Below, one piece after another: positions 2,342 through 55,685 of a stretch of DNA of 57,580 bases. The translations under genes and the position numbers were made by a program. The notes beneath the pieces were generated by a model. That model saw nothing but the letters and a program-made list of their open reading frames with translations, was not told the DNA's origin and searched no databases. How positions within the stretch are numbered: position 1 is the first letter of the stretch; each line of letters opens with the position of its first letter. The stretch is from a virus (taxonomy: Duplodnaviria; Heunggongvirae; Uroviricota; Caudoviricetes): the IMG/VR virus record IMGVR_UViG_2529293084_000006. One strand, written 5' to 3'.

Positions 2342-2886
2342 GCCTCCATCGCTTTATCCGGTTTGTCGGTGTTACTGCCCTGACCGTTCTCTCTGTGACG
2401 ATGCCCGTTATAGGCAAGCCGCATCGCTGACATGGTAGTGCCGCTGGAGTCGCACAGGTCTTTCACCTGTCCTGTCACTTCCAGGTCCATTTCAAAACGT
2501 GCTTTAGGTGAATTGCGAAACGTGATCGTTTTACCTGCACCGTCCACCACGATCCCCTCCCGGGTCAGCGTCACAGACTGCCCCTGATCGTCATAGACAG
2601 CCACCTCACCCGTCTGCAACCCTTTCAGGCGGTAGCGCCGGTCCGACACCGTAACAACCACCGCATGAGAACGGTCGCCATCCGGAAACAACACCACCGC
2701 TTCCGCGCCGCTGTTTGCCCTTGCGGTAAAACCGTAGGGTTCAAGATGTTCAACCCCGGCTTTGGGTTCACCGGCAATCAGGGACACATCCACGGTCTGA
2801 CATTTCGTGGCGGCACTGATGCTTTTCACCACTGCCCGCGCAATCAGGCCGAGAAGTTGTCGCTGCATGGCTTCAATCGTCCTCAT
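2338..2886 (-). CDS. Baseplate assembly protein V-like (Mu gp45-like)
   Basis: 182-aa ORF; position matches 43276..43890; overlapping start/stop typical of a baseplate operon. Confidence 0.6.
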   Translation of the reverse strand: MRTIEAMQRQLLGLIARAVVKSISAATKCQTVDVSLIAGEPKAGVEHLEPYGFTARANSGAEAVVLFPDGDRSHAVVVTVSDRRYRLKGLQTGEVAVYDDQGQSVTLTREGIVVDGAGKTITFRNSPKARFEMDLEVTGQVKDLCDSSGTTMSAMRLAYNGHRHRENGQGSNTDKPDKAMEA

Positions 2887-5316: not shown

Positions 5317-5334
5317 TAACAGATTAATTTTTCA

Positions 5335-7170: not shown

Positions 7171-7345
7171 GTGTGCGTTTCTCCTGCTCTATCCTGTTTG
7201 CCTGACTGACCAGCAAGGGAATTTCACTGATCGGCATATTCAGCAATTCGAAAGGATTAATGCGCCAGTAGCTGGCGCAGTCAAAGAAGCGATCAGTGAG
7301 GTATTCAGCCGTCAGGCCTGGAGGAAAAAACCAGCCACAAGCCAC
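7157..7345 (-). CDS. Tail assembly chaperone -1 frameshift extension
   Basis: 62-aa ORF in the -1 frame relative to 7312..7581, overlapping its 3' end; the classical G/GT arrangement. Confidence 0.5.
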   Translation of the reverse strand: MACGWFFPPGLTAEYLTDRFFDCASYWRINPFELLNMPISEIPLLVSQANRIEQEKRTHGGI

Positions 7346-7581
7346 GCCGCTGCATTCAGGTCTGCCGGAGACATCTGGTCGACAGAGCTTTGCGGCACTT
7401 TCGCCAGCCGCACAATGTATTTCGACACCACATGCGCCAGAAGTCTGACTGACTCATCCTGATTCATCTGGTAGGGATACCCCAGCTCGCGGACATCCTT
7501 CCCGGTGGGTTCATCAAACTCCAGTACGGAGAGTGTCTCGCCATGAGCAGTAATCGGTTTCTTTAACTCAAGCTCTTTCAT
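7312..7581 (-). CDS. Tail assembly chaperone (short form)
   Basis: 89-aa ORF between tail tube and tape measure; ends ...AAWLVAGFFLQA with a slippery heptamer in the overlap with the next ORF. Confidence 0.6.
   Translation of the reverse strand: MKELELKKPITAHGETLSVLEFDEPTGKDVRELGYPYQMNQDESVRLLAHVVSKYIVRLAKVPQSSVDQMSPADLNAAAWLVAGFFLQA
7324..7330 (-). other. Candidate -1 programmed frameshift slippery heptamer T_TTT_TTC
   Basis: Zero-frame codons GGT TTT TTC (..AGFF..) in the overlap; -1 slip gives ..FFPPGLTAEY.., the frame of the 62-aa ORF. Confidence 0.5.
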
Positions 7582-7937
7582 TACTGGTAATCCCCTTCTT
7601 CACCGTGGAACTCAAGATCAACCGTGCCTTCTTCGGCATTATGGTTCGCTTCGCCGTGCAGCCAGGCAGACGACAGTACATAGACCTGACCGTTCGCCAG
7701 CTCGGCAGTGATGGTCATCTCATCAGACGAGGTGATTTTGCTTACCGGAAAATTCTTCGGCACCTTGAAGGTCCCTTTGACATAAGGCGCACGGTGAGTT
7801 TCCTTGCGGTCCACTGAACCGTCCAGGCCGATGATGTCATCGTTAACCGTTTTGTTCATGGGCACCTCAATGCCGCCGGTCAGCGATAGCTGCTGACCGT
7901 CAATTTTGAAATAACAGGTTCCCCCGATACGGGCCAT
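7581..7937 (-). CDS. Tail tube protein
   Basis: 118-aa ORF immediately downstream of the sheath gene; size and position match the tube gene at 37784..38149. Confidence 0.7.
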   Translation of the reverse strand: MARIGGTCYFKIDGQQLSLTGGIEVPMNKTVNDDIIGLDGSVDRKETHRAPYVKGTFKVPKNFPVSKITSSDEMTITAELANGQVYVLSSAWLHGEANHNAEEGTVDLEFHGEEGDYQ

Positions 7938-9433
7938 TATGCAGACTCCTCTGAATACTGAAGACGGAACTGATTAACCACGGCAAAGACACGCAGCTGG
8001 TTAACATAGTCAGGCGGGAACAGCGTGTTCAGGCGGTTCGGATCGCTGGCATCACGCTCCACAACCAGGTACTGCTTAAACAGTTCGTAGTTTTCCACGA
8101 TCCCCGCACGCTCAAGCTGACGGTAGGTTGCCAGCAGTTCCCCTTTGATCACCGCCGGGGTGACAATCGCCTGACCGGGACCAAAGCGGGTACCGTCACT
8201 GGCAAGCTTGTGACGCCCGTACTTACTGGTAATGACGGATTTCAGTTTGCGCAGTACATACGCGCTGGTATGCAGCGTCTCACTGTCGAGGTAACTGTTA
8301 TCCGCAACCCCGTAAGCGTTTTTCCTGTACGTGGTGACATCACGCTGAATGCGTAGTACCCCGCTTTCGACATACGCCGTTGCCACGCCATGAGACAGCA
8401 GGGTCTGTTGTTCGGTCATCGTGAACCGTTTCCCCTTCGGCGCAGGCAGCATACCCACCAGCTCACCGGTCTGCGTGGGACGTGCCGGATCGTTGCGGAT
8501 AAACACCGCTGCGCGGGCGGTACGGCTTGCCGCCAGCTCGTCGGCAGGCGTCTGGGTCTCTTTTTCGTACCCCGCCAGGGTAATGTGCTGCTGGTTAAAC
8601 TGGTCACCTGCGGTCACCAGTTCTGACAGCGTGCCGATCTTTGCCGTATACACATGACCATACAGCTGACGCGCATAGCTCCAGCGACCGCTGGTATCGT
8701 TCATCTCGGTCACCAGCGTGTTAACGGAGGCCGTGTCGTTGAACGGCAGGCCGATATAATCAAACGGCTCATCCGCCATTGCAGCCACCGCGCCGGTGAG
8801 AACCGGAGCACCCGTTCCGGCGGTACCCGTCGCCACGGCAATCTGTACGCCCGCTGGCAGCACTTCGCCCCCACCAAAGCCGTAGTAATTGAGGCTGACA
8901 GGAATTTCATTCCCACAAAGCCCCTTATGACGCGCGGTCAGTGTGACCACGCCTGCCAAAGATGAAGCCGTAAACGGCAGGGTCGGAACGGCATTGATGG
9001 CATCCTGGATACTGCTGGCAATCATCGTGACGTTATCGCCGTTAGTCACCGGTGCCTGCACGCGGGTACGTCCTACATACACATTCACCGTGCCGGTTTC
9101 GGTTGCCGCCCCGGTCACCGTCAGCGTAACTGTTGCCGCCGCACCTGTGGATTCAGGAACGGCAATCACATACAGCTCGCCAAACGGGTCAGTCTGGCGA
9201 TAAGCCTCGACCATACGCGCCAGCTGACTTCCCGCACCACAAATCTGGCGTGCATAGTCTGCCGACGACATCAGTACCAGACTGTTGGCAACAATCTCTG
9301 CACCGTTATTGGCATGACCAATCAGCAGCGATGCTCCGCTGTCCTGTGCAGTATTCGCCGCCTGGTTATCCATTTCCGCATAAAACAACGGAACCAGCGT
9401 ATTCGACGGAATGGTGTTAAAGCTTATCGTCAT
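7937..9433 (-). CDS. Contractile tail sheath protein
   Basis: 498-aa ORF; C-terminus (..LVVERDASDPNRLNTLFPPDYVNQLRVFAVV..) aligns with the Mu-like sheath at 36276..37775 (..[31 protein letters not shown]..). Confidence 0.8.
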   Translation of the reverse strand: MTISFNTIPSNTLVPLFYAEMDNQAANTAQDSGASLLIGHANNGAEIVANSLVLMSSADYARQICGAGSQLARMVEAYRQTDPFGELYVIAVPESTGAAATVTLTVTGAATETGTVNVYVGRTRVQAPVTNGDNVTMIASSIQDAINAVPTLPFTASSLAGVVTLTARHKGLCGNEIPVSLNYYGFGGGEVLPAGVQIAVATGTAGTGAPVLTGAVAAMADEPFDYIGLPFNDTASVNTLVTEMNDTSGRWSYARQLYGHVYTAKIGTLSELVTAGDQFNQQHITLAGYEKETQTPADELAASRTARAAVFIRNDPARPTQTGELVGMLPAPKGKRFTMTEQQTLLSHGVATAYVESGVLRIQRDVTTYRKNAYGVADNSYLDSETLHTSAYVLRKLKSVITSKYGRHKLASDGTRFGPGQAIVTPAVIKGELLATYRQLERAGIVENYELFKQYLVVERDASDPNRLNTLFPPDYVNQLRVFAVVNQFRLQYSEESA

Positions 9434-9587
9434 CGGTGTTCACCTTTTTATTCACGCGCCGGATATCACCCGCTGCTTCACGGCGCAGCCAGTAGTTGTT
9501 CTCGTCAACATTTCGCCCTTCGGCGGGCAAAAGGTCGCCGCGGGCAGGGTCAGGCACTGACCGCCCTTTAACAGGTTTGACAAACAT
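9417..9587 (-). CDS. Small conserved phage protein, homologous to the 81-aa gp38-like ORF at 36034..36279
   Basis: 56-aa ORF below the track cutoff (MFVKPVKGRSVPDPARGDLLPAEG...); resembles MKTIFIKPAPGRLIRDPDTMRPLAQEG at 36034; RBS GAGGA upstream; coordinates approximate. Confidence 0.4.
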   Translation of the reverse strand: MFVKPVKGRSVPDPARGDLLPAEGRNVDENNYWLRREAAGDIRRVNKKVNTDDDKL

Positions 9588-9595
9588 GAGGATCC

Positions 9596-10156
9596 TCAGG
9601 AAGGAAGGGTTATTTCGGTGTGATGTTCGATATCGCCGTCAGGCCCGTTACCGGGCTCGAGATAATCAACATCAATCGCCAGCGTTTGCAGTTCATCCAG
9701 ACTGTTCAGATCATCCTGCTGGCGGGTATCGTCTTCAGTCAGCTCGCTGATGACCGAAAAATCGAACTGATAAATCAGCTCATGACGATTCAGATCCAGC
9801 AGCGTGCCGCCGTCATAGGTAATCGGGTTACCGCACGCTTCCGGGTTCCAGCCCAGCAAGGCCTTAAAGAGCATCTGCCGGACATCGTCCACCACATCAT
9901 ACGAAGCAAACTGACCGAGCTCATCACGCCCGTTACTCAGTATGACAACCACGGAGAAGCCCTCTTTCAGCTCCTGCCAGTAGTCGGTCTGGCTTTTGTT
10001 TTCTCCCGGAGAGTCATCACCCGGTACCACATACGCCGCCGGGAGTCTCAGCTTTCCGACCTCCGGCAGATTTTTGAACTGTGCCGCGCCTGCCACCCGG
10101 TTTTCAAAATACGGGCAGCGGGCACGCAGCGCAGCAATAACAGGCGTCAGTTTCAT
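9596..10156 (-). CDS. Conserved phage protein upstream of the sheath gene (Mu gp37-like position)
   Basis: 186-aa ORF in the same position as 35473..36033 in the Mu-like element. Confidence 0.4.
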   Translation of the reverse strand: MKLTPVIAALRARCPYFENRVAGAAQFKNLPEVGKLRLPAAYVVPGDDSPGENKSQTDYWQELKEGFSVVVILSNGRDELGQFASYDVVDDVRQMLFKALLGWNPEACGNPITYDGGTLLDLNRHELIYQFDFSVISELTEDDTRQQDDLNSLDELQTLAIDVDYLEPGNGPDGDIEHHTEITLPS

Positions 10157-10659
10157 CTGCGTCGTCGCTCAGGCTTCAGTGATTTACGTAATTCTCGCGC
10201 CAGAAAATAGCGTGTCCAGCTGCGGTTCTTTTCAAGCGTTTCCACCATAAAGTTATTACGTGGAGCCAGCCGCCAGCCGCTGCCACCGGATGCACCACGA
10301 TGATGACTACGACGACGTTTTGCTCCTCCCCGGACACCAAAAAACAGAAACGCCGGATAGAAGTCACCAGAGATCATCCGGTTCCCCTTCCCGTTGCGCT
10401 GGTTAGGGGCAATGCGTGTCATAAAACCGGCTCGCTTTTTACTGGCTCTCGGCACCATGTAACCAATCGAACGAGCCAGGCGTCCGGTCTGATAACCGGG
10501 GTTTTCACCCGGTGCCGACCGCGCACGGCGCATCACCAGCCGACGGGCATCACGCATATGACGCTGCCCAATCGTGACAAACGCCCGCCGGACACGGGCG
10601 CGGTTAAAGCGCATCTCGGCGGGCTGCTGAACATCAACGTGAAAAAAGGGAGTCGCCAT
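10153..10659 (-). CDS. Arg-rich phage head/tail joining protein (resembles HK97 gp10 family)
   Basis: 168-aa basic ORF between head-tail adaptor and tail genes; family assignment is from memory. Confidence 0.35.
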   Translation of the reverse strand: MATPFFHVDVQQPAEMRFNRARVRRAFVTIGQRHMRDARRLVMRRARSAPGENPGYQTGRLARSIGYMVPRASKKRAGFMTRIAPNQRNGKGNRMISGDFYPAFLFFGVRGGAKRRRSHHRGASGGSGWRLAPRNNFMVETLEKNRSWTRYFLARELRKSLKPERRRR

Positions 10660-11044
10660 TGCTGCCTCCGTGACTCTGCGTAAATTCGCCCAGTTCCGTA
10701 CACTCCAGCAGCAGAAAGCGCCGCGCCCCGTTCAGATCGCGCTGACGTTTCACCCGGTACACACTGTCATCACAGACCACCTCATAATCAGCAGTGATCC
10801 CGCGGCGGTAGCGAATGGTGATGTAATGGGTGATGGCGTCCCCGGTCTGCGCGGTTTCCTGCCAGGTGGTGGCACTGGTCTGGATAACCTTCGCCCATGC
10901 CCGGAACGCAACCGGGTATTGAGGCTCCACGCCAAAGTTATCCGCGGGCATATCCACCCGCTGGCGGATCAGGACGCGTTTATTCAGTTCGCCGGGGTCC
11001 GGCAGTATGTAGGTTGCGCTGGTCTGCGCCTGACGAATTTTCAT
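10634..11044 (-). CDS. Head-tail adaptor / head closure protein
   Basis: 136-aa ORF downstream of the connector gene in an HK97-type head module. Confidence 0.5.
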   Translation of the reverse strand: MKIRQAQTSATYILPDPGELNKRVLIRQRVDMPADNFGVEPQYPVAFRAWAKVIQTSATTWQETAQTGDAITHYITIRYRRGITADYEVVCDDSVYRVKRQRDLNGARRFLLLECTELGEFTQSHGGSNGDSLFSR

Positions 11045-11409
11045 AGTGGTATAAGGCGATAAGGAGCAACCAACCAGTTAAAACTCATTGGCAACTCCAT
11101 TTTCTCAACGTCTGTAACCGTTGAGCGGTTTTCGTAGAAATGGCTGACAAGTAGCAGAAGTGCCAGCTTCACATCATCAGATATCACAAGCCCATCAGGA
11201 TCATCCGCAGGCCTGTCATCTGCGGTTGCATACAACTTACGGTTAAGGAAGTTTTCCGTACGACTCTGAGCGGCCTTACCAAGCAGTTCAAGCAACTCAT
11301 CTTCATCAGAGAAATCATCATCCAGACGGAGCTGAAGCTTAATCTCTTCCATTTTTAACAGCATAAAACCTCCTGTGCCCGCCAGAACGCGGGCACAAAA
11401 AAACCGCAT
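11041..11409 (-). CDS. Head-tail connector protein (gp6-like)
   Basis: 122-aa acidic ORF immediately downstream of the major capsid gene. Confidence 0.55.
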   Translation of the reverse strand: MRFFCARVLAGTGGFMLLKMEEIKLQLRLDDDFSDEDELLELLGKAAQSRTENFLNRKLYATADDRPADDPDGLVISDDVKLALLLLVSHFYENRSTVTDVEKMELPMSFNWLVAPYRLIPL

Positions 11410-11442
11410 TACGCGGCGTGCTGTATTACGTAAAAAGACTAA

Positions 11443-12672
11443 TCAACCACCAACGCTACCTTTCCCCACCAGCGCTTTAATGGCAGAGGTGTCTTCCAGG
11501 ATACAGTCAAAACGATGGAAGGCCAGAAAACCGGTCTGATCATATTCCGCGTAACGCTCAACCAGACGTTTAAGAATCATGTATCGCACACGACGGATAA
11601 TGAAGCGATCAAAGTCACCACAGAACATGCATTTTTTACCCGCCCCGATATCATCAATTTCCTGATCAATGACATACGGTACATTCAACACTGAAGCAGG
11701 TGCCACACCAACAATATCCGGCAACCATAAAGGGCGTCCCTGACCGTCTTCCATCTCACTGATCAGTTTCAGCGTATTATCGTTAAACGCCAGGCGGAAT
11801 TTCGGTCCGCGACGATATGCAGGATCAATGCTGTGTTTCAGAGCCAGAATTTCCTGCCACTTCACCGTATTTGCCGCGGCAGTCTGTGTTGTGCCGGTCA
11901 CAGATGCGACCAGCCCTTTGGGTTGTTTAGGCGTACCAGCACCAGTTCCCTGAATCAGATAACGGGCTTCACCACGACCAATACGTTCAGCAATGCGACG
12001 GGCAAGATAAGCTTCCATATCGATCGCACTGTCCTGCAGCAACTCATTAGACACACGAATTATTTTCGATGTCATTTTGAGCGCCCCAAGGCTTCCCATA
12101 CCGAAATCGGTGTCTTCTTCACCGGCTTCTTCATTTTCGCCCAGCAGAACACCAACTTCGGAAGTACCATCAGCTGTTGCCCACTCCATAGTGCGACCGT
12201 CAGAAGTGGTAAGAATCTGCGCCACACTGGCGATGCCACCGTAGGATTTCATCTTCTCAACAACTTTCGCCAGGAATGTTTCTGGTACGGTATATCCGCC
12301 CTTTTCATCCTGAGCTACGCCCTGGGCACGAAGTTCACGCAACGCCTTTCGTTCTTCTGATGTCAGCTCACTGGCACCGTGACGCATCCACTTATCAAAA
12401 ACCTGAGCTCGTTTCTCATCCTGTTGTGGATTGTTTTCCGGATCAAGATTCTGACGCTGCTCTTCCTCATTGCTTTCAATGTACGCCTGATCCTGACGAC
12501 GCAGTTCTTCTTCGCGTGCAATTCGTTCATCAAGCGCTTCCAGTTCGGATTTTGCTTTGTTCCACTCAGTGCGCTGCTCTTCCGTCCATGCGTTATCACC
12601 AATTTTTTCATTCAGGGCGCGCATGTCAGTTGCGATAGTATTACGTTTCTGTTTCAGTTCATGCAGTTTCAT
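11443..12672 (-). CDS. Major capsid protein, HK97 family
   Basis: 409-aa ORF with an N-terminal charged coiled-coil delta-domain-like region followed by a capsid-sized body; follows the prohead protease gene. Confidence 0.8.
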   Translation of the reverse strand: MKLHELKQKRNTIATDMRALNEKIGDNAWTEEQRTEWNKAKSELEALDERIAREEELRRQDQAYIESNEEEQRQNLDPENNPQQDEKRAQVFDKWMRHGASELTSEERKALRELRAQGVAQDEKGGYTVPETFLAKVVEKMKSYGGIASVAQILTTSDGRTMEWATADGTSEVGVLLGENEEAGEEDTDFGMGSLGALKMTSKIIRVSNELLQDSAIDMEAYLARRIAERIGRGEARYLIQGTGAGTPKQPKGLVASVTGTTQTAAANTVKWQEILALKHSIDPAYRRGPKFRLAFNDNTLKLISEMEDGQGRPLWLPDIVGVAPASVLNVPYVIDQEIDDIGAGKKCMFCGDFDRFIIRRVRYMILKRLVERYAEYDQTGFLAFHRFDCILEDTSAIKALVGKGSVGG

Positions 12673-12682
12673 GATGTTTCCT

Positions 12683-13285
12683 TTACGCGTTAAGAAGGGT
12701 CAGGACGCGTTCACGCGCCATACGTTGATTAATGGCTTTCTGTAGCGCGCCGCTGTTGCGCGCCTCCTGCCATGCTTTCATGGAGCGAACAGCCGAGTCA
12801 GCCTCCTGATAGGCAGGATATGTCACAGGACTGACATCCAGCAGACGGGAAAAGCGGGTTATCTCGCGAATAACAACCCCGTCCTCATCCTGATACCACT
12901 CCTCGCCGTCACGGGCGACACGGAAAGCAAAAGATGACTGGTTAATATCTCCACGTTGCATCGGGGCCAGCACCAGATCACGAATGGTCTGTGTCTCCGG
13001 AGCCTGGATGTCATAGCGCAATCCGCGCTCATCAACTGAAAGATTCAGCGTGCCTGCTGCACTACGCCCAAGAATAAAATTAGGATCGTGGTTAAACAGT
13101 GCGCGTACATCATCACCAAGCACATCGTCAAAAGCGCCGGGCCGGATGATTTCGCGGAATGAACCAAATATCAGCTCAGAACGACAGTCAAACACCGATC
13201 CATAACCGATAATGTGCGCAGGGTTATCGTCATGCCGCTCAGCACGCACCTCACCGCTGTAACAACGGATTTCACGGTCATTCAT
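12683..13285 (-). CDS. Prohead protease, HK97 family
   Basis: ORF 12683..13342 trimmed to the ATG at 13285 (MNDREIR..., RBS GAGGGA upstream); sits between portal and major capsid. Confidence 0.7.
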   Translation of the reverse strand: MNDREIRCYSGEVRAERHDDNPAHIIGYGSVFDCRSELIFGSFREIIRPGAFDDVLGDDVRALFNHDPNFILGRSAAGTLNLSVDERGLRYDIQAPETQTIRDLVLAPMQRGDINQSSFAFRVARDGEEWYQDEDGVVIREITRFSRLLDVSPVTYPAYQEADSAVRSMKAWQEARNSGALQKAINQRMARERVLTLLNA

Positions 13286-13646
13286 TGGTTTTTCCCTCAT
13301 CATTTTTTGGGGGCTTAAAATCTCCTGCCGGGTTAGCAGCATTCACGCTTACCAGCATCTCATCCAGCCCTTCAACCGGATTCATATCCTCGAATGCGCG
13401 GGCTTCATTACGGCTCATCCATCCATCGGTAATAGCGAAGTGATAGAATTGCGCGCGCTCCTGCGGAGTTCCGCGTAAAAGCCCCGTCAGATTGAACCTA
13501 ACGTAATACCCGGCGGCTAACTCAGCGCGGGTAAACAAGCGACGGTTAAGCTCCTGCTCCCAGTTCGTTACCCACGGCATCATCGTGTAGCGGACAAACT
13601 GAATCGCCTGCGCAGAAATATTGGAGAATGTAACCAGGTGAATCAT
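13278..13646 (-). pseudogene. Portal protein C-terminal fragment (gene interrupted by the Mu-like insertion)
   Basis: 122-aa ORF; the frame ..VTFSNISAQ.. continues the N-terminal fragment ending ..INDLEKATF at 52920, so the two pieces reconstruct a ~415-aa HK97-type portal. Confidence 0.75.
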
Positions 13647-13815
13647 TTGATACCAACGAGGGTTTTAGTGAAAGGAGGTGAAATCACCTGTAAGATACTG
13701 AAATAAAACAGGTGATGTCTGGATGAGCGCTTAAAGTCTATTTGATACCGATTGTGCAATAATTAATCGTTTATTCTAAAATCGGCAAAACTTTTGATAC
13801 TGCGATCTCAACTTT
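13629..13815 (+). repeat. Mu-like left end with three transposase-binding repeats (L1-L3-like)
   Basis: TTTGATAC(C) at 13646, 13741 and 13793, i.e. about 17, 112 and 164 bp from the terminus, close to the Mu L1/L2/L3 spacing as I recall it; terminus begins TGTAACC. Confidence 0.6.
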
Positions 13816-32546: not shown

Positions 32547-33671
32547 ATGAAGACGAAAAACACGCCCAAACTTGCTTATGCCATTCTGAATGCCATCAGC
32601 CTGTCCGCAGACGGGGACGGTGACTGGTGTCAGATCATGCCAGCCGGTCGGGTAAAGGCCCGTGACGGTCGCCCGGAAAAACCGGCTGAAGGCTGGCTGA
32701 TTAACCGTGCGACCGTTGAGCGCATGGTCTCCCGGGTTGTGGCGCTCAATCAGCCGGTGAAAATTGACTACAACCACCAGACCCTGATTGAGGGACATCC
32801 GGCACCGGCTGCCGGTTTTGTGATGGCCTCACCGGAGAATTTTCGCTTCAGTGAAGAGCGTGGCTTCGAGGTGCGCCCGAAGTGGAACCCTCCGGCCCTT
32901 GAACATCTGCGTAATAACGAATTCCCCTGGTTTTCACCGGTGATTGGCTATGACGAGAGCACCGGCGAACCTGTCGAACTTCGGATGCTGGCTATTACCG
33001 GTGACCCCGGTCTGACCGGCATGAATCCTGTCGCCGCGCTGTCGGCGGATGACCTTTATAACGCCTTAAACCCTCCGTTAAAGGATACCTCCATGAATGA
33101 GCAATTACGCCAGTTGCTGACGGCGCTCGGTCTGACCGTGGCTGACGGTGACGAATTTACGCCGGAGCTGGGCACGGCGGCGCTGTCTGCACTCACCGGG
33201 ATCAAAACCCGTGCGGATGCACACGACAACCTGAAAACACAGGTCGCCAGTCTGTCGGCAGAGCTGGAAACCGCAAAAGGCACACCGGCTGGCGGCAGTA
33301 TTGATCTGACGAAATACGTGCCCGTTGAAACGTATAACGCCCTGCGTACCGAATACGTTGCGCTGTCGGCACAGCACGGCAGCACCACACTGGAGCAGGT
33401 GCTGGACAAGGCTGAATCCGAAGGGCGCATCTTCAAAAGCGAACGCGGCTATCTGGAACAACTGGGCGGGCAGATTGGCGTTGCGGCACTTTCTGCACAG
33501 CTTGACGCCCGACAGCCGGTTGCGGCCCTGACCGGCCTTCAGACCGACACCGTGACCGTGCCGGATAAAAAGACTGCCACCGCTGCGCTGTCGGCTGAAG
33601 ATATCGCCGCTGCCCATCTGCTGGGTAAAACCGAAGCCGAGTTCCTGAAAATGAAAGAGGAAATGCAATAA
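32547..33671 (+). CDS. Head protease / scaffold protein (Mu I-like)
   Basis: 374 aa immediately upstream of the major head gene; Ala-rich helical C-terminal half. Confidence 0.7.
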   Translation: MKTKNTPKLAYAILNAISLSADGDGDWCQIMPAGRVKARDGRPEKPAEGWLINRATVERMVSRVVALNQPVKIDYNHQTLIEGHPAPAAGFVMASPENFRFSEERGFEVRPKWNPPALEHLRNNEFPWFSPVIGYDESTGEPVELRMLAITGDPGLTGMNPVAALSADDLYNALNPPLKDTSMNEQLRQLLTALGLTVADGDEFTPELGTAALSALTGIKTRADAHDNLKTQVASLSAELETAKGTPAGGSIDLTKYVPVETYNALRTEYVALSAQHGSTTLEQVLDKAESEGRIFKSERGYLEQLGGQIGVAALSAQLDARQPVAALTGLQTDTVTVPDKKTATAALSAEDIAAAHLLGKTEAEFLKMKEEMQ

Positions 33672-34618
33672 TGCCTACCCCGATTACACCGGCGATGATC
33701 ACCGCCCTGATGACGGGCTACCGTTCTGATTTTCAGGCCGGGATGTCCATGGCCCCGTCGCAGTACAAAAAAATTGCGATGACCGTGCCCTCCACCTCGA
33801 AATCCAACACCTACGGCTGGCTGGGGCAGTTCCCGCAGTTCCGTGAGTGGATCGGCTCCCGCGTCATCGAGAAGATGAAAGCCTATGGCTATGCCATCGT
33901 GAACAAAACTTTTGAAGGCACTGTCGCCATTAGCCGCGATGACTTCGAAGACGACAACCTCGGTATTTATTCCCCGTTGTTCCAGGAGATGGGGCGCGCT
34001 GCGGCGGTACAACCGGATGAGCTGGTCTTTGCTGCCCTGCGTGACGGGATCAGTGCGGCCTGCTATGACGGTCAGAACTTCTTTGATACCGAACATCCGG
34101 TTTACCCCAAAGTGGATGGCTCCGGGGATGCGCAGATGGTCAGCAATATGTTTGTGGCAAAAACCGGCTCTGTCGGTGCACAGGCGGATTACAGCGGTCC
34201 TGCCTGGTATCTGCTCGACTGTTCACGCGCAATCAAACCGCTGATTTATCAGGATCGCCGTAAGGCTGAACTGGTTGCCCAGACCAAAGTCGATGAAGGT
34301 CGCGCATTCACCGATAACGAATTTGTGTTCGGTGCTTCTGCCCGTCGCAATGTGGGCTACGGCTTCTGGCAGATGGCCTACATGATGCAGTCACCGCTGA
34401 CGCTGGATGCACTGTGGCACGGCTGGTCAGCCATGCGCGAATTTACCGCTGACGGTGGCCGCAAACTCGGCATCAAACCCACCCATATTGTTGTCCCCAC
34501 CTCGCTGGAAAAACAGGCGGTGCAGCTGCTGGAGCGTGAACTGTTCGCAGACGGTAACGCCACCGTCTCTAACGAGATGAAGGGCAAGCTGGAGCTGGTT
34601 GTCGCGGATTATCTGTAA
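33671..34618 (+). CDS. Major head subunit (Mu T-like)
   Basis: 315-aa ORF at the T position; followed by a GC hairpin (GCCGGGC-TTAC-GCCCGGC). Confidence 0.8.
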   Translation: MPTPITPAMITALMTGYRSDFQAGMSMAPSQYKKIAMTVPSTSKSNTYGWLGQFPQFREWIGSRVIEKMKAYGYAIVNKTFEGTVAISRDDFEDDNLGIYSPLFQEMGRAAAVQPDELVFAALRDGISAACYDGQNFFDTEHPVYPKVDGSGDAQMVSNMFVAKTGSVGAQADYSGPAWYLLDCSRAIKPLIYQDRRKAELVAQTKVDEGRAFTDNEFVFGASARRNVGYGFWQMAYMMQSPLTLDALWHGWSAMREFTADGGRKLGIKPTHIVVPTSLEKQAVQLLERELFADGNATVSNEMKGKLELVVADYL

Positions 34619-34661
34619 ATGGTGAGCCGGGCTTACGGCCCGGCCCCTGCGGAGGGCAAAT

Positions 34662-35060
34662 ATGAATGAACATCACACTGTGGCAGCAACAGATGATTCA
34701 GGTCTTCAGGTCAGTGGTGACAATTCTGTCACGGTGCTGGCAGAAGTGCGTTGCAGTCGTTCGGCGTTTCGTCGTGCGGGATTCCTGTTCACGCGTGGAC
34801 GTCAGCAGGTTGAGGTCACCCCGGAGCAGCTTGCCCGACTGGAGGCGGAGCCATGCCTCACTGTGCGAATACTACAGACGCCTGCTGATGATGCGGGGAG
34901 CGTGGCGGGTGTGGTTCATGCAGTGGCCGGTTCAGATTTAGCCGAAGCCGAAGCCGAAGCCGAAGCCGAAGCCGAAGCCGAAGCCGAAGCCGAAGCCGAA
35001 GCCGGACAGGATGCTCCCTGGAAAAAGACCGGTAACAAAGCGAAACAGGCCCGTGCATGA
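34662..35060 (+). CDS. Hypothetical head-region protein containing an (Ala-Glu)n repeat
   Basis: 132 aa; residues 94-114 are AEAEAE... encoded by the hexanucleotide repeat. Confidence 0.5.
   Translation: MNEHHTVAATDDSGLQVSGDNSVTVLAEVRCSRSAFRRAGFLFTRGRQQVEVTPEQLARLEAEPCLTVRILQTPADDAGSVAGVVHAVAGSDLAEAEAEAEAEAEAEAEAEAEAGQDAPWKKTGNKAKQARA
34941..35000 (+). repeat. Perfect hexanucleotide tandem repeat (GCCGAA) x ~10, in frame
   Basis: Read directly; copy number derived from the 132-aa ORF length. Confidence 0.9.
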
Positions 35061-35476
35061 ATTACGCCACTGAAACCGATATGCGGGCGCGTTACCGCGA
35101 GGATTTGCTCAGGCCGTTACTGGCTGTGCCCCGTTCGGATGAGCCGGATACGCGCAAGCTGAACCGGGCGCTGACAGATGCGTCAGCCCTTATCGACAGC
35201 TATCTGTCCGCCCGTTACACGCTGCCGCTGGAGGTTATTCCGGCCGTTCTTGTTCAGCACTGTTGCGCGATTGCCTTTTATTACCTGTGCGATCAGCGAG
35301 CCTCAGATCAGGCGCGTGACCGTTACCGTGAGGCGCTGGCCTGGCTGAAAGATGTCATGAACGGCAATGTGCCGGTAGGTGTGGATACGAACGGAGCGGC
35401 CCCTGAATCCGGGGATTTACCACAGGTTCAGTCTGATGCAGCGGTATTCGGGCGCAACCAGAAGGGCTTCATATGA
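35057..35476 (+). CDS. Head-tail joining protein (Mu gp36 position)
   Basis: 139-aa ORF overlapping neighbours by start/stop. Confidence 0.45.
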   Translation: MNYATETDMRARYREDLLRPLLAVPRSDEPDTRKLNRALTDASALIDSYLSARYTLPLEVIPAVLVQHCCAIAFYYLCDQRASDQARDRYREALAWLKDVMNGNVPVGVDTNGAAPESGDLPQVQSDAAVFGRNQKGFI

Positions 35477-36033
35477 TTACGGAAACCGAACAGGCATACA
35501 TCGCCCGTATCCGTGAGTATTTCGGGAATGAACTGGTGTCTGTTGACACGCATCCCGGCGACTGGAACGACAGCGTACTGCGCACCATGCTGATTAACGC
35601 CCCGGCGATCTACGTTGCCTGGCTGGGTGCCGGTGAAGGCCGTACCCGTGGTCGCCTGGTCAGTCACTGGGTGTTCTACGTCATCGGCGACATGCTCAAC
35701 GGGCGTGAGGCCAGCCGTCCCGGATTGTATCAGATTGTGGCCCGGCTGATTGCCGTGCTTAACGGCTTCAGAACAGAAAAAACCTCACCGCTTTACTTTG
35801 AAAAGGCGGTCAACGGTTACACCGAAACCCAGGCGGACAGTGGTGCGGTGATGTATGCGCTTTATTTCTCCTGCGAGGAAATGATCGCACCGCTGACCGA
35901 TATCAGCTCGCTGGACGACTTCCTGCGTCATTACGAAACCTTTGTGGAGCCGCCCGGTACGCCGCCGTTTGAGGCACATATTGATTTGCCGGGGAACACG
36001 ACAACGGCGGTCGAACCGCCGGAGGAACTGTAA
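35473..36033 (+). CDS. Conserved phage protein (Mu gp37 position)
   Basis: 186-aa ORF. Confidence 0.45.
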   Translation: MITETEQAYIARIREYFGNELVSVDTHPGDWNDSVLRTMLINAPAIYVAWLGAGEGRTRGRLVSHWVFYVIGDMLNGREASRPGLYQIVARLIAVLNGFRTEKTSPLYFEKAVNGYTETQADSGAVMYALYFSCEEMIAPLTDISSLDDFLRHYETFVEPPGTPPFEAHIDLPGNTTTAVEPPEEL

Positions 36034-36279
36034 ATGAAAACCATCTTTATCAAACCCGCGCCGGGACGCCTGATTCGTGATCCCGACACAATGCGCCCGC
36101 TGGCACAGGAGGGGGAGGAAAAGCCCTTTACGCCGTTCTGGTGTCGGCGTCTTGATGACGGCGATGTCATTCAGGCTGAAAAAGCCGCTGAAGAGGCTCC
36201 GGCTGTATCTGCGGATGCAACGACTGCGACAGAAAAACCGGTCGCCCAACCGGCATCCGATAAGGAGAAACCGCAATGA
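36034..36279 (+). CDS. Small conserved protein (Mu gp38 position)
   Basis: 81 aa; resembles the small host-prophage ORF at 9417..9587. Confidence 0.45.
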   Translation: MKTIFIKPAPGRLIRDPDTMRPLAQEGEEKPFTPFWCRRLDDGDVIQAEKAAEEAPAVSADATTATEKPVAQPASDKEKPQ

Positions 36280-37775
36280 TTAATTTTGACGGGATCGGTA
36301 ATGACCGCCGTATACCGCTGATTGAGGTTGAGTTTAATAACTCCATGGCTGTCACCGGCACTCCGGCACAGCGTCAGTGTGTGCTGCTGTTTGGTCAGGC
36401 GAGAATGAAAGAGAATGCCGTGGACGGTGCCGGTGTTCTGGATGTTCCGGTCAGGATCACCCGTGCGTCTCAGGCAACAGAATTCTGGGGGCGCGGCTCC
36501 ATGATTGCCCTGATGGTGGCGGAATTTATCGCCATCAATCCTGATGCTGAACTGTATGCCATTGCTCAGGGGAGCGGCACCGGTCAGGCTCAGGCATGTC
36601 TCATGAATATAATTGGCACCGCCTCTCAGGATGGTGTTCTGCACATTTATATCGGCGGTCGGCGTTATCTGCTGGCTGTCACGAAGGGGCAGCAAGGTAA
36701 GGAGCTTATTGACGCTCTGGTCTCTGTTATTAATGCCGATGCTGATGCGCCCTTCAGTGCTTATGCAGGTCAGGTAGCAGATAACGCCAGCGGACTCAAG
36801 GGAAGTATGGGAATTAATGCCCGTTTTACCGGTGAATGTTCCGTACATGATATCCGTGTTAATTATCATGACGGAGAAACCACACCGGGTGGACTGACCA
36901 TTGAACTTGGGTATCCCAAAACAAAAGCCACTAACCCGGATATCACCCGAAGCGTGGCGGGTATGGGCGATCGCCAGTACAACTATGTCGTCATGCCCTA
37001 TAAGGATGATGCAAACCTGAAAATCATCAGTGATGAGCTTCTGAAACGCTGGGGACCGGCCAAAATGTCTGACGGTGTGCTGTGGATGGCGCATACCGGC
37101 ACGTTTGGTGAGGTGCAGGCATTCGGGGCAAAACGCAATGATTTTCTGGCGACCTGCACATTCATTCCCAAAGCCCCTGAACCGGATTACCTCTGGGCAG
37201 CGGCGGTCTGCGCCACCTGTGCGCCGTCTCTGGGGGCAGATCCTGCGCGTCCGCTTCAGACGCTGGCGCTTCCGTCACGCATGGCCCCGGCCCCGGCCGA
37301 TCGTCTGACGCGTGAAGAGCGTAACAGTCTGCTGTGGGGAGGGATTGCCACGGTCAGTGTGGCTGCCGGTGATGTGGTTCAGATCGAACGTCAGGTGACC
37401 ATGTATCGCCAGAACGTGTACGGCGAAAGTGATCCCAGCTATCTGGATGTGGAAACCATCTACACCCTCTCCTGGCTGCGTTATTCCCTGCGTACTTTTA
37501 TCACACAACGTTTTCCGCGCCATAAACTGGCTGATGACGGGACGCCCGTTCGTGCCGGTCAGAATATCGTGACGCCGGAGATCATGAAGCTTCAGTTAAT
37601 TTCGCTGGGTGAAGAGTGGGTGGAACTCGGGCTGGTCGAAAATCTGGACACCTTTAAAAAGAATCTGCTTGTGGAGCGTAATGCGTCAGATCGAAACCGT
37701 CTTGACGTGTTATGCACGCCGGATCTGGTTAACCAGTTCCGCTTCCTGGCAGCACAGATCCGTTTCATTTTGTGA
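36276..37775 (+). CDS. Contractile tail sheath protein (Mu L-like)
   Basis: 499 aa; C-terminus homologous to the sheath at 7937..9433; AAGGAG RBS. Confidence 0.85.
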   Translation: [499 protein letters not shown]

Positions 37776-47975: not shown

Positions 47976-48536
47976 ATGCTGATTGGCTATATACGCGTAT
48001 CAACAAATGACCAGAACACCGGTTTACAAAGAAATGCGCTGGAATGTGCAGGATGTGAGCAGATTTTTGAAGACAAAATGAGTGGTAAAACGACACAGCG
48101 GCCGGGACTGAAGCGGGCACTGAAGAAACTAAAACCCGGTGACACGCTGATGGTCTGGAAACTGGACAGGCTGGGGCGCAGTATGCGCCACCTTGTTGCG
48201 CTGACAGATGAATTACAGCAACAGGGGATAAATTTTCGTAGTCTTACTGACAACATTGATACGTCAACCCCCATGGGGCGCTTCTTTTTTCACATAATGG
48301 GTGCGCTGGCAGAAATGGAGCGTGAATTAATTGTCGAACGGACACGGGCTGGTCTTGCAGCTGCCCGTGAAAGGGGACGAACCGGCGGCAGACCCCGCCG
48401 TCTCACGCAGGAACAATACGAGCAGGTCGGGCGTTTACTGGCCGGGGGTGTCAGTCGAAGACAGGTGGCACTTATTTTTGATATCGGTCTTTCAACCCTT
48501 TATCGTTATTATCCTGCGAGCGTTTCGGAAAAATAA
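47976..48536 (+). CDS. gin: Serine recombinase / DNA invertase (Gin/Hin/Pin/Cin family)
   Basis: 186 aa; N-terminal catalytic region (LIGYIRVSTNDQ, MVWKLDRLGRS) and C-terminal HTH; directly beside the invertible segment. Confidence 0.9.
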   Translation: MLIGYIRVSTNDQNTGLQRNALECAGCEQIFEDKMSGKTTQRPGLKRALKKLKPGDTLMVWKLDRLGRSMRHLVALTDELQQQGINFRSLTDNIDTSTPMGRFFFHIMGALAEMERELIVERTRAGLAAARERGRTGGRPRRLTQEQYEQVGRLLAGGVSRRQVALIFDIGLSTLYRYYPASVSEK

Positions 48537-48635: not shown

Positions 48636-50675
48636 ATGACGTCCAAATGGGTTCAACTATCATCAATGCCCGGAAACTTTACTGTTAAAGTTTCCGGTGG
48701 TACAGCGGCATTTCTTGAGGCTCCCTTTCCTCCGGCCGAAACAAAAGGAGGAATGACATTTGCTGACTGTCTCATCAGTTTTAATACACGGGATTGCCTG
48801 TGGGTAAGGCCAGTATCCGGTGATCCGAGTGTGGAAATTACCGGAGCGGGTATTGGTGCGGTCATTCCGTTAAGTGCTGATGTTGCCGGTACTGCTGAAC
48901 CGTCAGACTGGGATAATGCTGAAACACATACCCGTCCGTCAGGAAATGAAACTGCTTCCAGCTCCCCTTCCTGGTATTACGTGGTGGTTCTTGCTGGTCA
49001 GTCAAACGGTATGGCTTACGGTGAAGGTCTGCCACTGCCGGAGACATATGACCGCCCCGAACCGCGTATTATGCAGTTAGCCCGTCGCAGTACAGTCACG
49101 CCGGGAGGTAAAGCCTGTCAGTATAACGACATCATTCTGGCCGACCACTGTCTGCATGATGTGCAGGATATGAGTGGAAAAAATCACCCGAAAGCGGATG
49201 TGGCTAAAGGGCAATATGGCACCGTGGGTCAGGGGCTTCACATTGCCAAAAAACTGCTGCCGTTTATTCCGGCAGATGCGGGGATTCTGCTGGTTCCCTG
49301 CTGCCGTGGTGGTTCTGCATTCACGGCGGGTGCTGACGGCACGTACAGTGACAGCACGGGTGCTTCAGAGGACTCAGCCCGCTGGGGTGTGGATAAGCCG
49401 CTGTATAAGGACTTAATCAGCCGGACAAAAGCGGCACTGGCGAAGAACCCGAAAAACCGCCTGCTTGCTGTGGTGTGGATGCAGGGCGAGTTTGATATTG
49501 ATGCGAAGCCGACGGAGCATTCTGCGCTGTTTCTGGCGATGGTGGAAAAATTCCGCGCAGACCTGGCTGAACAGGCGGAACAGTGTACCGGTGGCAGTGC
49601 TGCTGGCGTTCCGTGGATTTGTGGCGATACCACGTATTTCTGGAAACAGAAAAATGAACCAGCATACCAGGCAATCTATGGCGGCTACAAAAACAAAACA
49701 GATAAAAACATTCATTTCGTTCCATTAATGACAGATGAAAATGGCGTGAATGTACCCACCAACAATCCGGCAGAAGACCCGGATATTGAATCCATTGGTT
49801 ATTACGGCTCAACGTGGCGTAACAGTGCCGCTACCTGGACATCTGCGGACCGGGCCAGCCATTTCAGTGCCTGGGCGCGCCGGGGTATTATTTCTGACCG
49901 TCTGGCCACGGCTGTTCTGACTCATGCAGGGCGAACCACAGTAAAAGCCGATGTTCCATCTTCTGAAACTGAAGCACCAGTGCCGTCACCTTCAGAAACT
50001 GAAGCAGTAACCACAACACTGCTGTCTTACCGTGTCAGTGAGTCAGAAGGAAATCTGAAAGCCCAGGGCTGGGAGCCGGCTGGCGGTAAAGCTGAAATTA
50101 TCAGTGATGCAGGAGGCACAGGTGGTAAGGCAATGAAACTGACCAAGGAAACAGGTAAATCATCCTGGTATCTGGATCATGATGCCGGTACTGGTGCTGA
50201 ACTGCTGAAAAATGGTGGTTTAATCAGTTGTCGTTTTAAAGTACCTGGCGACCTGGTGGCAAACCAGTATGTCATGGCGCTGTACTGGCCGGTTTCCTCT
50301 CTGCCGCAGGGTGTCACCCTGACAGGGGATGCAGGGAATAATCTGCTGGCATCGTTCTACATCCAGACAGACGCAAAAGACCTGAATGTGATGTACCACA
50401 ATGCAAAAGTGGCAACAAATAACCAGAAACTGGGAACCTTTGGTGCATTTGATAATGAATGGCATACGCTGGCCTTCCGTTTTGCAGGAAATAACAGCCT
50501 TCAGGTTATTCCGGTTATTGATGGTCAGGATGGTGCCGCGTTTACCCTGACGCAGTCACCAGTAGGAACTTTCCCGGTGGACAAACTCCGCGTAACGGAT
50601 ATCACCAAAAATGCAACTTACCCGGTGCTGATTGACAGCATTGTGGTGGAAGTGAAAAAAGCGGTAACAGAATAA
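48636..50675 (+). CDS. SGNH-hydrolase family esterase, likely a sialate O-acetylesterase of the prophage NanS-p type
   Basis: 679 aa; GQSNG block (VVLAGQSNGMAYGE) typical of SGNH hydrolases; size and multidomain layout resemble prophage esterases of enterohaemorrhagic E. coli; family assignment is from motifs only. Confidence 0.6.
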   Translation: MTSKWVQLSSMPGNFTVKVSGGTAAFLEAPFPPAETKGGMTFADCLISFNTRDCLWVRPVSGDPSVEITGAGIGAVIPLSADVAGTAEPSDWDNAETHTRPSGNETASSSPSWYYVVVLAGQSNGMAYGEGLPLPETYDRPEPRIMQLARRSTVTPGGKACQYNDIILADHCLHDVQDMSGKNHPKADVAKGQYGTVGQGLHIAKKLLPFIPADAGILLVPCCRGGSAFTAGADGTYSDSTGASEDSARWGVDKPLYKDLISRTKAALAKNPKNRLLAVVWMQGEFDIDAKPTEHSALFLAMVEKFRADLAEQAEQCTGGSAAGVPWICGDTTYFWKQKNEPAYQAIYGGYKNKTDKNIHFVPLMTDENGVNVPTNNPAEDPDIESIGYYGSTWRNSAATWTSADRASHFSAWARRGIISDRLATAVLTHAGRTTVKADVPSSETEAPVPSPSETEAVTTTLLSYRVSESEGNLKAQGWEPAGGKAEIISDAGGTGGKAMKLTKETGKSSWYLDHDAGTGAELLKNGGLISCRFKVPGDLVANQYVMALYWPVSSLPQGVTLTGDAGNNLLASFYIQTDAKDLNVMYHNAKVATNNQKLGTFGAFDNEWHTLAFRFAGNNSLQVIPVIDGQDGAAFTLTQSPVGTFPVDKLRVTDITKNATYPVLIDSIVVEVKKAVTE

Positions 50676-52840: not shown

Positions 52841-52924
52841 TAGTATCAAATAAGTTGCGTATCGGCGTTTTTCAGCAGTATCAAATGAAATGCAAATCGG
52901 TATCAAAAAAATCGCCGCGCTATA
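52841..52924 (+). repeat. Mu-like right end with three inverted transposase-binding repeats (R1-R3-like)
   Basis: GTATCAAA at 52841, 52878 and 52899; the last 30 bp align in inverse orientation to the left end (TTGATACC at the same offset). The terminus reads ..GCGCTATA, not the canonical ..CA. Confidence 0.55.
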
Positions 52925-53804
52925 AGAAGGTGGCTTTTTCGAGGTCATTAATCATGTGCGCAGGAATATTGAAAATACCGGCAATCATTGAACGGTTCAG
53001 TTTCATCATGTCAATGATCTGAGCGTCAACTGGCGACACAGTCAGTGCCTTGTAATCCAGATCGGCTGGCAGCAGCATGGTTTTGTTTTCCTGGCTGCGT
53101 AACGCCTGCGATGCCTTCTGCCACTGATCTTTAAGCCAGCCCCAGCTGTCCTTATTGAGTCCGCTTTTAACGGATACTATCCCCGCCGGACGGGCATTAC
53201 CGCTGAAGAAGCTTTCTGTGTATTTCTGACCGCTCATCCCCATGCCTATTGTTTCGGCATGTTGCATAATCGGACTCAGCCCCATCTTCTGATTATTACC
53301 CAGCGCACGGATGTGGATCATATCGTCGGGGCTGATCGCAAACGCCCCATATTCGTTGTACAAACCGTAGGTATATCGGCCACCAGTATTCATCAGCGTC
53401 GTTTCCCACGGCATACAGCAATCCAGGGATATGACTTCACCGCGACGATTACGTTTCACCCAGGTATACCCATTCCCCCAGCCAAGGATGTGACGTTGCT
53501 TCAGTTCGCGCCATTTGTAACTGGTTTGCCAGGTATTGGGCTCATCATGAACCAGATAAAACGCCGGATGATCGCGTGCGGGCTCAACCTTCCCATTGTG
53601 CCTGCGCATAACATGCAACGGCATCTGGGCAAGGCTGGAAGACAGGACATAGATACAGGAATACACCGCAGCCAGTTTCATCGCAGTTTCAGGACTGACA
53701 TAAACGTCTGTCCGGAACAGCCCATCAGTATCAACGGCATCCCCGGTTATCGGGGTGGAAGGATTCTCCAGTGATTTACTTCTGAACAGAGCATCAAGCA
53801 GCAC
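52920..53804 (-). pseudogene. Portal protein N-terminal fragment (gene interrupted by the Mu-like insertion)
   Basis: 294-aa ORF ending ..HMINDLEKATF then L-stop read from the Mu right end; continues in frame with 13278..13646. Confidence 0.75.
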
Positions 53805-53955
53805 GCGTCCCCCTTCTGGCCATAGCCAGTGCGCCCACCAGCAGTAAACCGCCGGACAGCATCAGAGCCGGAGCCATACCAAACTGCAGGTAAAACCCGC
53901 ACGTAAGCAGGCCAAAACCAGCCAGCCCGATAACATCAGCAATTAGTGATTTCAT
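53794..53955 (-). CDS. Small membrane protein between terminase and portal
   Basis: 53-aa ORF below the track cutoff ([26 protein letters not shown]...); ATG overlaps the terminase stop (ATGA). Confidence 0.3.
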
Positions 53956-55685
53956 AGAATTAAGAGAGCATCGTCCGGATCAAGAGATGAGAGGAAATCG
54001 TCGGGTTCTTTGAGCATTGCCCGACCGATCGCCATAATCAGCGCAACCGCACCATCGATTTTGTTTTCCGCCTGCTCCTTGACAGGCTTCACCACATCAT
54101 CGTTACCCGGAATGGTTTTGCCGACCACGTTGCCGATACACCAGGTCATGATGGGATTGCCGTCATGATGAAAGCGCCCCGATTCAATCGCCGCTTCCAG
54201 CTCTTTCATCGGATCGGACATGTTGGTGTAGTTCTGAATGATGGTGATGGGGTTCAGGTCTTCATCAGCAAGGTCATGCGACAGCCCGGTCGCCCCGAAG
54301 GGGTCGATGGGTGACTCACTGACCGGGCTGATTTTGTTCGCCGCTTTGGCCTCCTCGAGGATGTACCGATAATCCACCTCCGCACCAGCGGTAACAGTCA
54401 GAACGCCCATTTCCACCCATTTCTGAAAGCGTTCGGCTGTCCGGCGATCTTCATTTTTCTCGACGCTGTACACCGTGTCATACGGTACCCAGAAACGCGG
54501 GGCCACACTGTAGTAATGCGTTTTACCGTCAATCTCGCGGGTATAAAGTCGCGCCATGCTGTTCATATCCAGCTTACGCGCCAGGTCAAAGGCCAGAATG
54601 CACGGCTGCCCCTCGAACTGCTCAAGGGTCAGTGATTTATCCTCGCAGCTCTGCCAGCTCACCAGGTTGAAATACGCCGAACGCGCCGACACCCAGATAT
54701 TGAGGTGTTTTGTTTTAAAGACGTTTGCCAGACGGGCGTTATTTTTCGCACGCTGCTGCTGACTTAACAAAAATTCGCGATAAACCGACACGCCAATATT
54801 TGGATTGGCTTTTTCCAGCACCTGCGGGTCGATCCAGTCGTCACCTTCATCAACGGTATAGATGATCCCGAACAGTTCATCGTTGGGTACCGAACCGTTG
54901 AGCATCTCGATAACTTCCCGCCGCTTGTCGTAGCACGGCCCCTCAATGTTGTACCCGGCGGTGGTGATGGCCCACATCAGTGGCTGACGTCGCGCCCCCA
55001 TCCCGGTAAGCATCGTGGTATAAAGCGCATCGGTGGCGTGCTCGTGATATTCATCCACCACCGCACAGTGGGGTGATGAACCATCACCAGGGTTACCGAT
55101 CAGCGGTTCAAACCGCGCACCATCCTCCGGACGGTTCATGTTTGAGGCGTTAACCTCAATCCCGAACGCTTCCGTCAGCATGGGTGTGCGTTTACACATC
55201 AGTCGTGCCGGACGAAAGACTTCCCATGCCTGTTTCTCCGTCGTGGCACCGGAATACACTTCCGCGCCGAACTCGTTATCACAGGCAAAACAATACAGGG
55301 CGACACCGGCAGAGATTGCCGATTTGCCGTTCTTACGGGGGATTTCGGTATACACCTCCCGGAAGCGGCGCAGCCGGGAGCCTTTATTGACCCAGCCAAA
55401 CGCGCAGCAGATCACAAAGAGCTGCCACGGCTCCAGCGTGATGGGCATCCGTTTGAATGCCCACTCACCCTTGGTGTGCGGCAACAGCTGAATAAATTTC
55501 GCGGCCCGTTCAGCCAGGTCCTTGTCGAAGCGGTAACGAAACGACTTACTTTTTTCCGCCATCAGGTCATCAAGATGGCGCTGGCAGGCCTGAATCACAA
55601 ACTGGCAGGCCACAATCTTTCCGCGCACGACATCACGGGCATACTGATTTGCAGCATTTACGTTGGGGTAAGATTTCCGGCTCAT
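53952..55685 (-). CDS. Terminase large subunit
   Basis: 577 aa between small terminase and portal, with the size and placement expected of a large terminase. Confidence 0.8.

Follow-up and report, generated by a model that had tools for sequence, protein, structure and literature searches.

The contingency loci of Haemophilus and Neisseria carry short intragenic repeats with units that are not a multiple of three, or repeats placed in the promoter, and the outcome of a change in unit number is ON/OFF expression of the phase-variable gene. The PulseNet typing loci O157-3, -9, -17, -19, -25, and -37 are built instead from 6-bp units that stand in frame. On the protein side, the closest known systems include the product of phage Mu gene 35, its FluMu homolog HI1506 from H. 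influenzae, and YqbF of B. subtilis (PDB 2HJQ), a protein of the skin-element prophage. A further typing locus, EHC-5, belongs to the Japanese MLVA scheme for enterohaemorrhagic E. coli (EHEC); its primers are listed in the S5 Table of a paper on that scheme (PMC10062581), where Izumiya et al. 2010 (Microbiol Immunol 54:569) are credited with it. According to the same paper, which tabulates alleles of 0, 2, 3, 5, 6, 7, 9, 10, 11, 12, and 13 or more from fragment sizing in O157, EHC-5 is scored 0 (absent) in most O157 clades (quartiles 0, 0, 0) and is highly variable where present, with quartiles of 0, 2, 10 in clade 3 and 0, 0, 7 in clade 12.

Here, we analysed a 57,580-nucleotide stretch of Caudoviricetes DNA (IMG/VR record IMGVR_UViG_2529293084_000006; hereafter, the window), in which a sequence-only reading had pointed to a perfect hexamer array, (GCCGAA)x10, coding for Ala-Glu in frame within a head-region gene. 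Each of these claims stood up to closer inspection. Direct reading of the sequence placed the ten units, all perfect, at exactly 34941-35000 on the plus strand, in the context GAT TTA (GCC GAA)x10 GCC GGA CAG GAT. This putatively slippage-prone VNTR core encodes (Ala-Glu)10, occurs with 1 to 20 copies in relatives, and is closed by a degenerate eleventh unit, GCCGGA (Ala-Gly; 35001-35006, +), that is present in 12 of the 13 arrays read. Tandem Repeats Finder recovered the same array at 34940-35004 (period 6, 10.8 copies, 100% matches, 0% indels) with a score of 130 vs. only 44 for the second-best array in the 57.6-kb window, and the array is thus far beyond what chance would produce.

The array lies within a plus-strand gene at 34662-35060 that encodes a 132-residue protein of the gp35/HI1506 family, as indicated by its open reading frame and by Pfam and PHROG matches, and the C-terminal half of the translated product reads ...AGSDL(AE)10AGQDAPWKKTGNKAKQARA. 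Its Sakai counterpart, ECs_4975, is annotated as a 'DNA processing protein', and counterparts elsewhere as 'HI1506-related protein'. That this is the true coding frame is supported by a Pfam FluMu_N domain in the same frame 5′ of the array (PF17891; 37.3 bits vs. a cutoff of 25.8, E 2.2e-09), by a Shine-Dalgarno sequence, GGAGG, read directly at 34651-34655 (+), 6 nt 5′ of the ATG at 34662, and by the overlap of the stop codon with the start of gp36 as ATGA.

The surrounding genes agree with the head-region assignment. Upstream lie the Mu I protease (32547-33671; Pfam/PHROG scan) and the Mu-like major head subunit gpT (33671-34618, +; Pfam PF10124, E 3.9e-119), and downstream lie gp36 of the head-tail adaptor family (35057-35476, +; Pfam PF07030, E 3.5e-35), gp37 (35473-36033), a DUF2635 gene, and the tail sheath (36276-37775). 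This order is that of phage Mu, in which the counterpart Mup35 is annotated as 'hypothetical; HI1506 homolog', and it recurs in an Edwardsiella prophage. The 43-nt gap between the gpT stop (34616-34618) and the repeat gene contains a GC-rich hairpin, GCCGGGC-TTACG-GCCCGGC, at 34626-34644, which could set the level of expression downstream of the abundant major head gene, either by attenuation or by stabilising the mRNA as a stem.

Domain analysis divided the protein into a folded N-terminal half, the repeat, and a basic tail. The alpha/beta FluMu_N domain spans residues ~21-72 (34722-34877, +), carries a conserved R-R-A-G core, and was delineated by Pfam, alignment, Foldseek, and an AF2 model built from an 18-sequence alignment. 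The model shows four strands, one helix, and a final strand, with block-mean pLDDT values of 87-90 over residues 21-70. The N-terminal half also matches PHROG 3622, a family of unknown function, and the sole solved relative, HI1506 (FluMu gp35; PDB 2OUT), is matched over residues 25-93 by phmmer (E 2.1e-05) and by the N-domain in Foldseek (E 4.9e-04). Past this domain the picture changes: no helix is predicted after residue 76, and residues 77-132, comprising the whole (AE)n tract and the tail, have pLDDT values below 50, an indirect sign of disorder. The segment with the repeat is therefore predicted by the model to be an intrinsically disordered acidic linker, and the term 'linker' in the sequence-only reading is reasonable, since AF2 folds only residues ~21-72 and the tract occupies the position of the inter-domain linker of the relatives. 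The Lys/Arg-rich C-terminal tail, QDAPWKKTGNKAKQARA (35007-35057, +), is likewise predicted to be disordered and stands in place of the helical C-domain of the relatives.

This architecture was then compared with that of other family members. Because a full-length protein query is biased by its AE words and returned only close E. coli and Shigella variants, the searches were repeated with the N-domain alone and with a profile. Mu gp35 and its Edwardsiella, Salmonella, and Serratia relatives consist of an N-domain with the R-R-A-G core, a variable linker, and a C-domain of ~45 residues; the latter is helical, bears the motif ...IRxAVAxLDKxNPxHFTxxGxPKVxAV..., and corresponds to the second domain of HI1506. 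In alignments with these four groups of relatives, the C-domain is absent from the window protein. At the DNA level, homology to the two-domain Edwardsiella gene is good over the N-domain, is lost after ...GVVH..., and returns just before the gp36 start, and this alignment contains no recognisable remnant or frameshifted homology of the C-domain. The Sp18-type protein is thus a truncated or remodelled gp35-family member composed of an N-domain, an acidic repeat, and a Lys/Arg-rich tail. No tandem repeat was seen in the other gp35/HI1506-family relatives that were read.

Several observations on the wider family accompany these results. The Salmonella two-domain homologs (P0095, P0103-P0185; 159-174 aa) form many 90%-identity clusters and differ mainly in the N-terminal leader and in the linker between the domains; in the gp35 family, the sequence outside the domains thus seems as a rule to vary freely, even where no tandem repeat is present. 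In the relative P0100, a helix-hairpin-helix DNA-binding domain is joined to two copies of FluMu_N, which hints weakly at a role of the family close to DNA. Two further proteins, P0086 and P0087, were considered as multi-copy FluMu_N giants and rejected, as Pfam finds no FluMu_N in them and P0086 is a Big_5 Ig-like repeat protein. With respect to a place in the particle, the repeat protein has no match among solved phage-particle chains, neither gp35 nor HI1506 is named in the main text of the proteomics paper on SuMu virions, and a literature search for gp35 in Mu-like virions returned only an unrelated Shigella phage; what bears on this point is the position of the gene and the ability of Sp18 to package its DNA.

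The array locus is the MLVA marker EHC-5 and was, accordingly, already known. The forward EHC-5 primer site lies at 34869-34891 (+) with one mismatch, and the reverse site at 35021-35043 (-) with one mismatch at the 5′ end of the primer; zero matches are expected by chance for either. The two primers converge and enclose the array in an amplicon of 175 bp (34869-35043); when each primer was permitted one degenerate base, 11 related loci, that of Sakai among them, proved to contain both sites as well. The EHC-6 forward primer, used as a control, has no match in the window. At the DNA level, there is no difference between EHC-5 and the window locus, whose allele corresponds to ten perfect units and one degenerate unit. 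The absence of EHC-5 from most O157 strains also fits its carriage on a prophage, as the repeat gene was detected in 228 of 5426 complete E. coli genomes, at up to six places per genome. The identification came only through the primer table of PMC10062581. A whole-word literature search with all rotations and complements of the hexamer, 12 in total, found no E. coli typing paper, searches for HI1506, Mup35, ECs4975, or an Sp18 VNTR in O157 found nothing relevant, and those for MLVA with a Mu-like phage found only papers on Pseudomonas and Yersinia.

The sequence-only reading had further proposed that slippage would alter the linker without breaking the frame and that the protein may be variable in length, and it suggested comparing the unit number across related prophages. 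That comparison revealed a number that is far from invariant. In 12 fetched relatives, the perfect GCCGAA units amount to 1, 1, 6, 7, 8, 10, 13, 14, 15, 16, 18, and 20, and the flanks of the directly counted arrays are near-identical. The frame is preserved throughout: all 13 arrays read directly (the window and the 12 relatives) lie in intact ORFs of 117-152 aa. A broader sample was obtained with a 1101-nt query spanning the gene, which yielded place lengths from 98 complete genomes. The unit numbers inferred from these lengths include all values from 1 to 16, plus 18 and 20, and, after correction for a separate 9-bp indel near the 3′ end, 97 of the 98 lengths are a multiple of 3 away from that of the window. 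Since this sample was BLAST-ranked by similarity to a 10-unit query, its frequencies are biased, while its range is not; among these similarity-ranked lengths, no preferred array length is visible, with nearly all lengths from 1 to 16 occurring.

The most direct view of the pace of change was provided by the near-clonal cattle isolates 118, 120, and 114. Their chromosomes are almost equal in size, the locus lies at almost the same coordinate, and 1435 flanking bases contain no mismatch; nevertheless, they carry 15, 13, and 14 perfect units (16, 14, and 15 in total), respectively. Identical flanks combined with differing counts indicate that the unit number changes fast. In several strains, the protein accessions of gpT and gp36 are constant and that of the repeat protein differs in each, and strain F1273 carries two prophage copies in a single genome, with about 10 and about 5 units. 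Single-unit alleles, in turn, persist in several lineages.

Variation was also found beyond the count of perfect units. The protein sequences contain variant dipeptide units such as AG, VE, SE, and AK; of these, AG is itself repeated, as (AG)n, in certain alleles (e.g. AEAEAEAGAGAGAGQD). A second in-frame polymorphism affects the basic tail, where many relatives carry a 9-bp insertion at 35046-35047 (+) that converts KQARA to KQAKKARA and looks like a small duplication. Rare alleles depart from the frame: in P0072, the array is translated in a different frame, as (Lys-Pro)n, before the usual tail resumes; in P0047 and P0051, the frame changes downstream of the array; and in the complete genome NZ_AP042500.1, the place length differs by +13 nt, which is no multiple of 3. 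Such frame-breaking alleles may reflect errors in sequencing, or they may be genuine null or altered alleles.

The gene is carried by a Mu-like prophage of the Sakai Sp18 type, ~39 kb in length (~13630-52924, +), with repressor, MuA, and MuB at its left and Mom at its right; homology to Sakai Sp18 begins near 13627 and ends at 52924. Sp18 has been predicted to be intact, and its DNA was found to be 'efficiently packaged' (Asadulghani et al., PMC2669165), which means that its morphogenesis module works and bears in part on whether the ORF with the repeat is expressed. The element is found at many chromosomal positions in related strains and within other prophages, which indicates ongoing transposition or infection and, hence, a functional late operon. 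Relatives of the element are annotated within Stx1a and Stx2c phages (LC727895, LC727881).

In the window, the Mu-like prophage sits inside the portal gene of a different prophage. Its left end adjoins the remaining C-terminal piece of the portal (positions 244-321 of 321 in the Pfam Phage_portal profile; left flank 13278-13646), and the right flank (52920-55685) holds a minus-strand ORF at 52920-53804 and, at 53952-55685, the large terminase. The prophage ends, TGTAAC...GCTATA (13627-13650/52900-52930), are bracketed by AGAA as a 4-bp direct repeat, and when the flanks were joined through one AGAA copy, hand translation restored the portal frame as ...EKATFSNISAQ.... In Sakai, the prophage is inserted in sorM with TAAA as the direct repeat. 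The target-site duplication of Mu is normally 5 bp; at the prophage ends here and in Sakai, only a 4-bp repeat is readable (AGAA and TAAA, respectively), and the exact termini are thus uncertain by one base. The disrupted host prophage is represented by a second, unrelated morphogenesis module on the minus strand at ~300-13650. It encodes a capsid protein of the HK97 type (11443-12672) and an S78 prohead protease (12683-13342); a further ORF of 498 aa (7937-9433) would, judging from its length and location, fit a tail sheath.

Other features lie close to the ends of the Mu-like element. Three copies of TTTGATAC(C/T) occur near the left end (13647-13800) and three inverted copies, (A/G)GTATCAAA, near the right end (52842-52908), in an arrangement that resembles the Mu transposase-binding sites L1-L3 and R1-R3. 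Near the right end, the gene that comes after a Gin-like serine invertase (47976-48536) encodes a protein of 679 aa (48636-50675) with a SASA sialate O-acetylesterase domain and DUF6645. This esterase gene may represent cargo or encode a tail-associated enzyme, and its position recalls the esterase genes carried by Stx phages.

Considered together, we favour, with a probability of roughly 0.85, an explanation in which slippage acts on a pure hexamer array lying in a tolerant, disordered acidic linker whose length varies nearly neutrally. We infer slippage as the mechanism: slipped-strand mispairing during DNA replication would add or remove whole hexamer units, and, as the unit comprises two codons, each slip would gain or lose one Ala-Glu with the frame kept. 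The acidic disordered segment would join the folded FluMu_N domain to the short Lys/Arg-rich tail and would accept practically any number of units, from 1 up to at least 20. The gene, being a late one, is presumably silent in the lysogen, and length variants could then accumulate fast and almost neutrally. Such fast, near-neutral change in length would make the locus usable as the epidemiological marker EHC-5. The units are, moreover, sequence-pure, as recent slippage, rather than selection on the peptide, would be expected to leave them. Counted against neutrality is the juxtaposition of an acidic tract and a basic tail, which could have a functional, length-dependent role.

This last consideration leads to a different reading, in which (Ala-Glu)n is a selected, adjustable acidic spacer that, in a protein associated with the capsid or binding DNA, determines how far the basic tail extends or how it is masked electrostatically, and slippage supplies heritable, graded heterogeneity rather than ON/OFF switching. 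The tract does stand between the folded domain and the Lys/Arg-rich tail, relatives pair FluMu_N with candidate DNA-binding modules (the helical C-domain of Mu gp35 and the helix-hairpin-helix of P0100), and frame-breaking alleles are rare. Furthermore, the prophage is active, with packaged DNA and many positions, and the gene is consequently exposed to selection from time to time. Nevertheless, we consider this reading unlikely, as nearly every length from 1 to 16 is present with none visibly preferred, one-unit alleles persist in several lineages, and the purity of the units is what mutation-driven turnover predicts. A more specific version, in which the tract is a slippage-tunable spacer that masks or positions the tail of a head-associated, DNA-contacting protein and thereby forms a 'rheostat' contingency locus in a virion protein, is likewise unlikely; if it were true, populations of Mu-like phages would carry graded, heritable variation in DNA packaging or ejection, or in capsid stability.

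Two readings that place the cause outside the peptide fared less well. The array might be a cis-acting DNA or RNA element, such as a protein-binding array, a structured RNA, or a recombination or gyrase site, with its coding capacity incidental. Nothing specific speaks for such an element, and the central strong gyrase site of Mu is annotated between G and I rather than here. Against 200 shuffled sequences, the array strand displayed no excess of secondary structure (z = +1.69, with 194 of the 200 shuffles folding at least as well), the hexamer is not self-complementary, and the opposite-strand ORFs of the array, (RL)n and (SA)n, lack family support. A 20-fold range in copy number is, in addition, ill-suited to a dosage-sensitive site, and retention of the frame in 97 of 98 genomes argues for constraint at the protein level, and we therefore regard a cis-acting role as highly improbable. 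The remaining reading attributes the length differences to mis-assembly or mis-sequencing of a low-complexity tract. Many draft-genome proteins are indeed 'partial' and end inside the tract (P0057, P0061, P0063, and P0069), showing that short-read assemblies sometimes break there; the differences are, however, also present in closed, complete genomes, come as whole units, and are reproduced by independent PCR fragment sizing in routine MLVA, which refutes an artefact as their source and leaves this reading with next to no weight.

The locus already has a practical use as a marker for enterohaemorrhagic E. coli in outbreak surveillance. To this, our analysis adds that EHC-5 is a coding marker, located inside a gp35/HI1506-family gene of a mobile, packaging-competent Mu-like prophage, and that each of its alleles corresponds to a distinct protein isoform, from (Ala-Glu)1 to (Ala-Glu)20. 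It is perhaps not widely appreciated that the marker encodes (Ala-Glu)n in a head-module protein with a replaced C-domain. As the prophage transposes, EHC-5 may be absent, may lie inside another prophage, or may be present in multiple copies of different lengths within one genome, which bears on the reading of null or double EHC-5 peaks. The alleles also constitute a natural experiment, in which the segment that follows FluMu_N tolerates a 20-fold change in length, thereby constraining models of the role of the gp35 family.

Relative to the known systems, the repeat protein shares with Mu gp35 and FluMu HI1506 a homologous N-domain followed by a flexible segment, and its gene, as in Mu and Edwardsiella, lies between gpT and gp36. 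It differs from the Mu, Edwardsiella, Salmonella, and Serratia proteins, and from HI1506 by its PDB title, in that these have two domains, whereas the Sp18-type protein carries (AE)n and a basic tail instead. With the contingency loci, it shares slipped-strand mispairing at a short intragenic repeat as the presumed source of variation. Unlike in those loci, the unit is 6 bp long and lies inside the ORF, so that length alone changes, as reflected in the 13 intact ORFs of 13 read and in the 97 of 98 lengths that lie a multiple of 3 apart; a phase-variable contingency locus was accordingly rejected, as a unit of this kind neither shifts the frame nor sits in a promoter. In use, it resembles the PulseNet O157 loci (listed in PMC10062581), which are likewise short tandem arrays with fast change in unit number that serve in outbreak typing. 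Essentially every O157 strain has those loci, however, while EHC-5 resides on a mobile Mu-like prophage and is, as a result, often absent or present in multiple copies.
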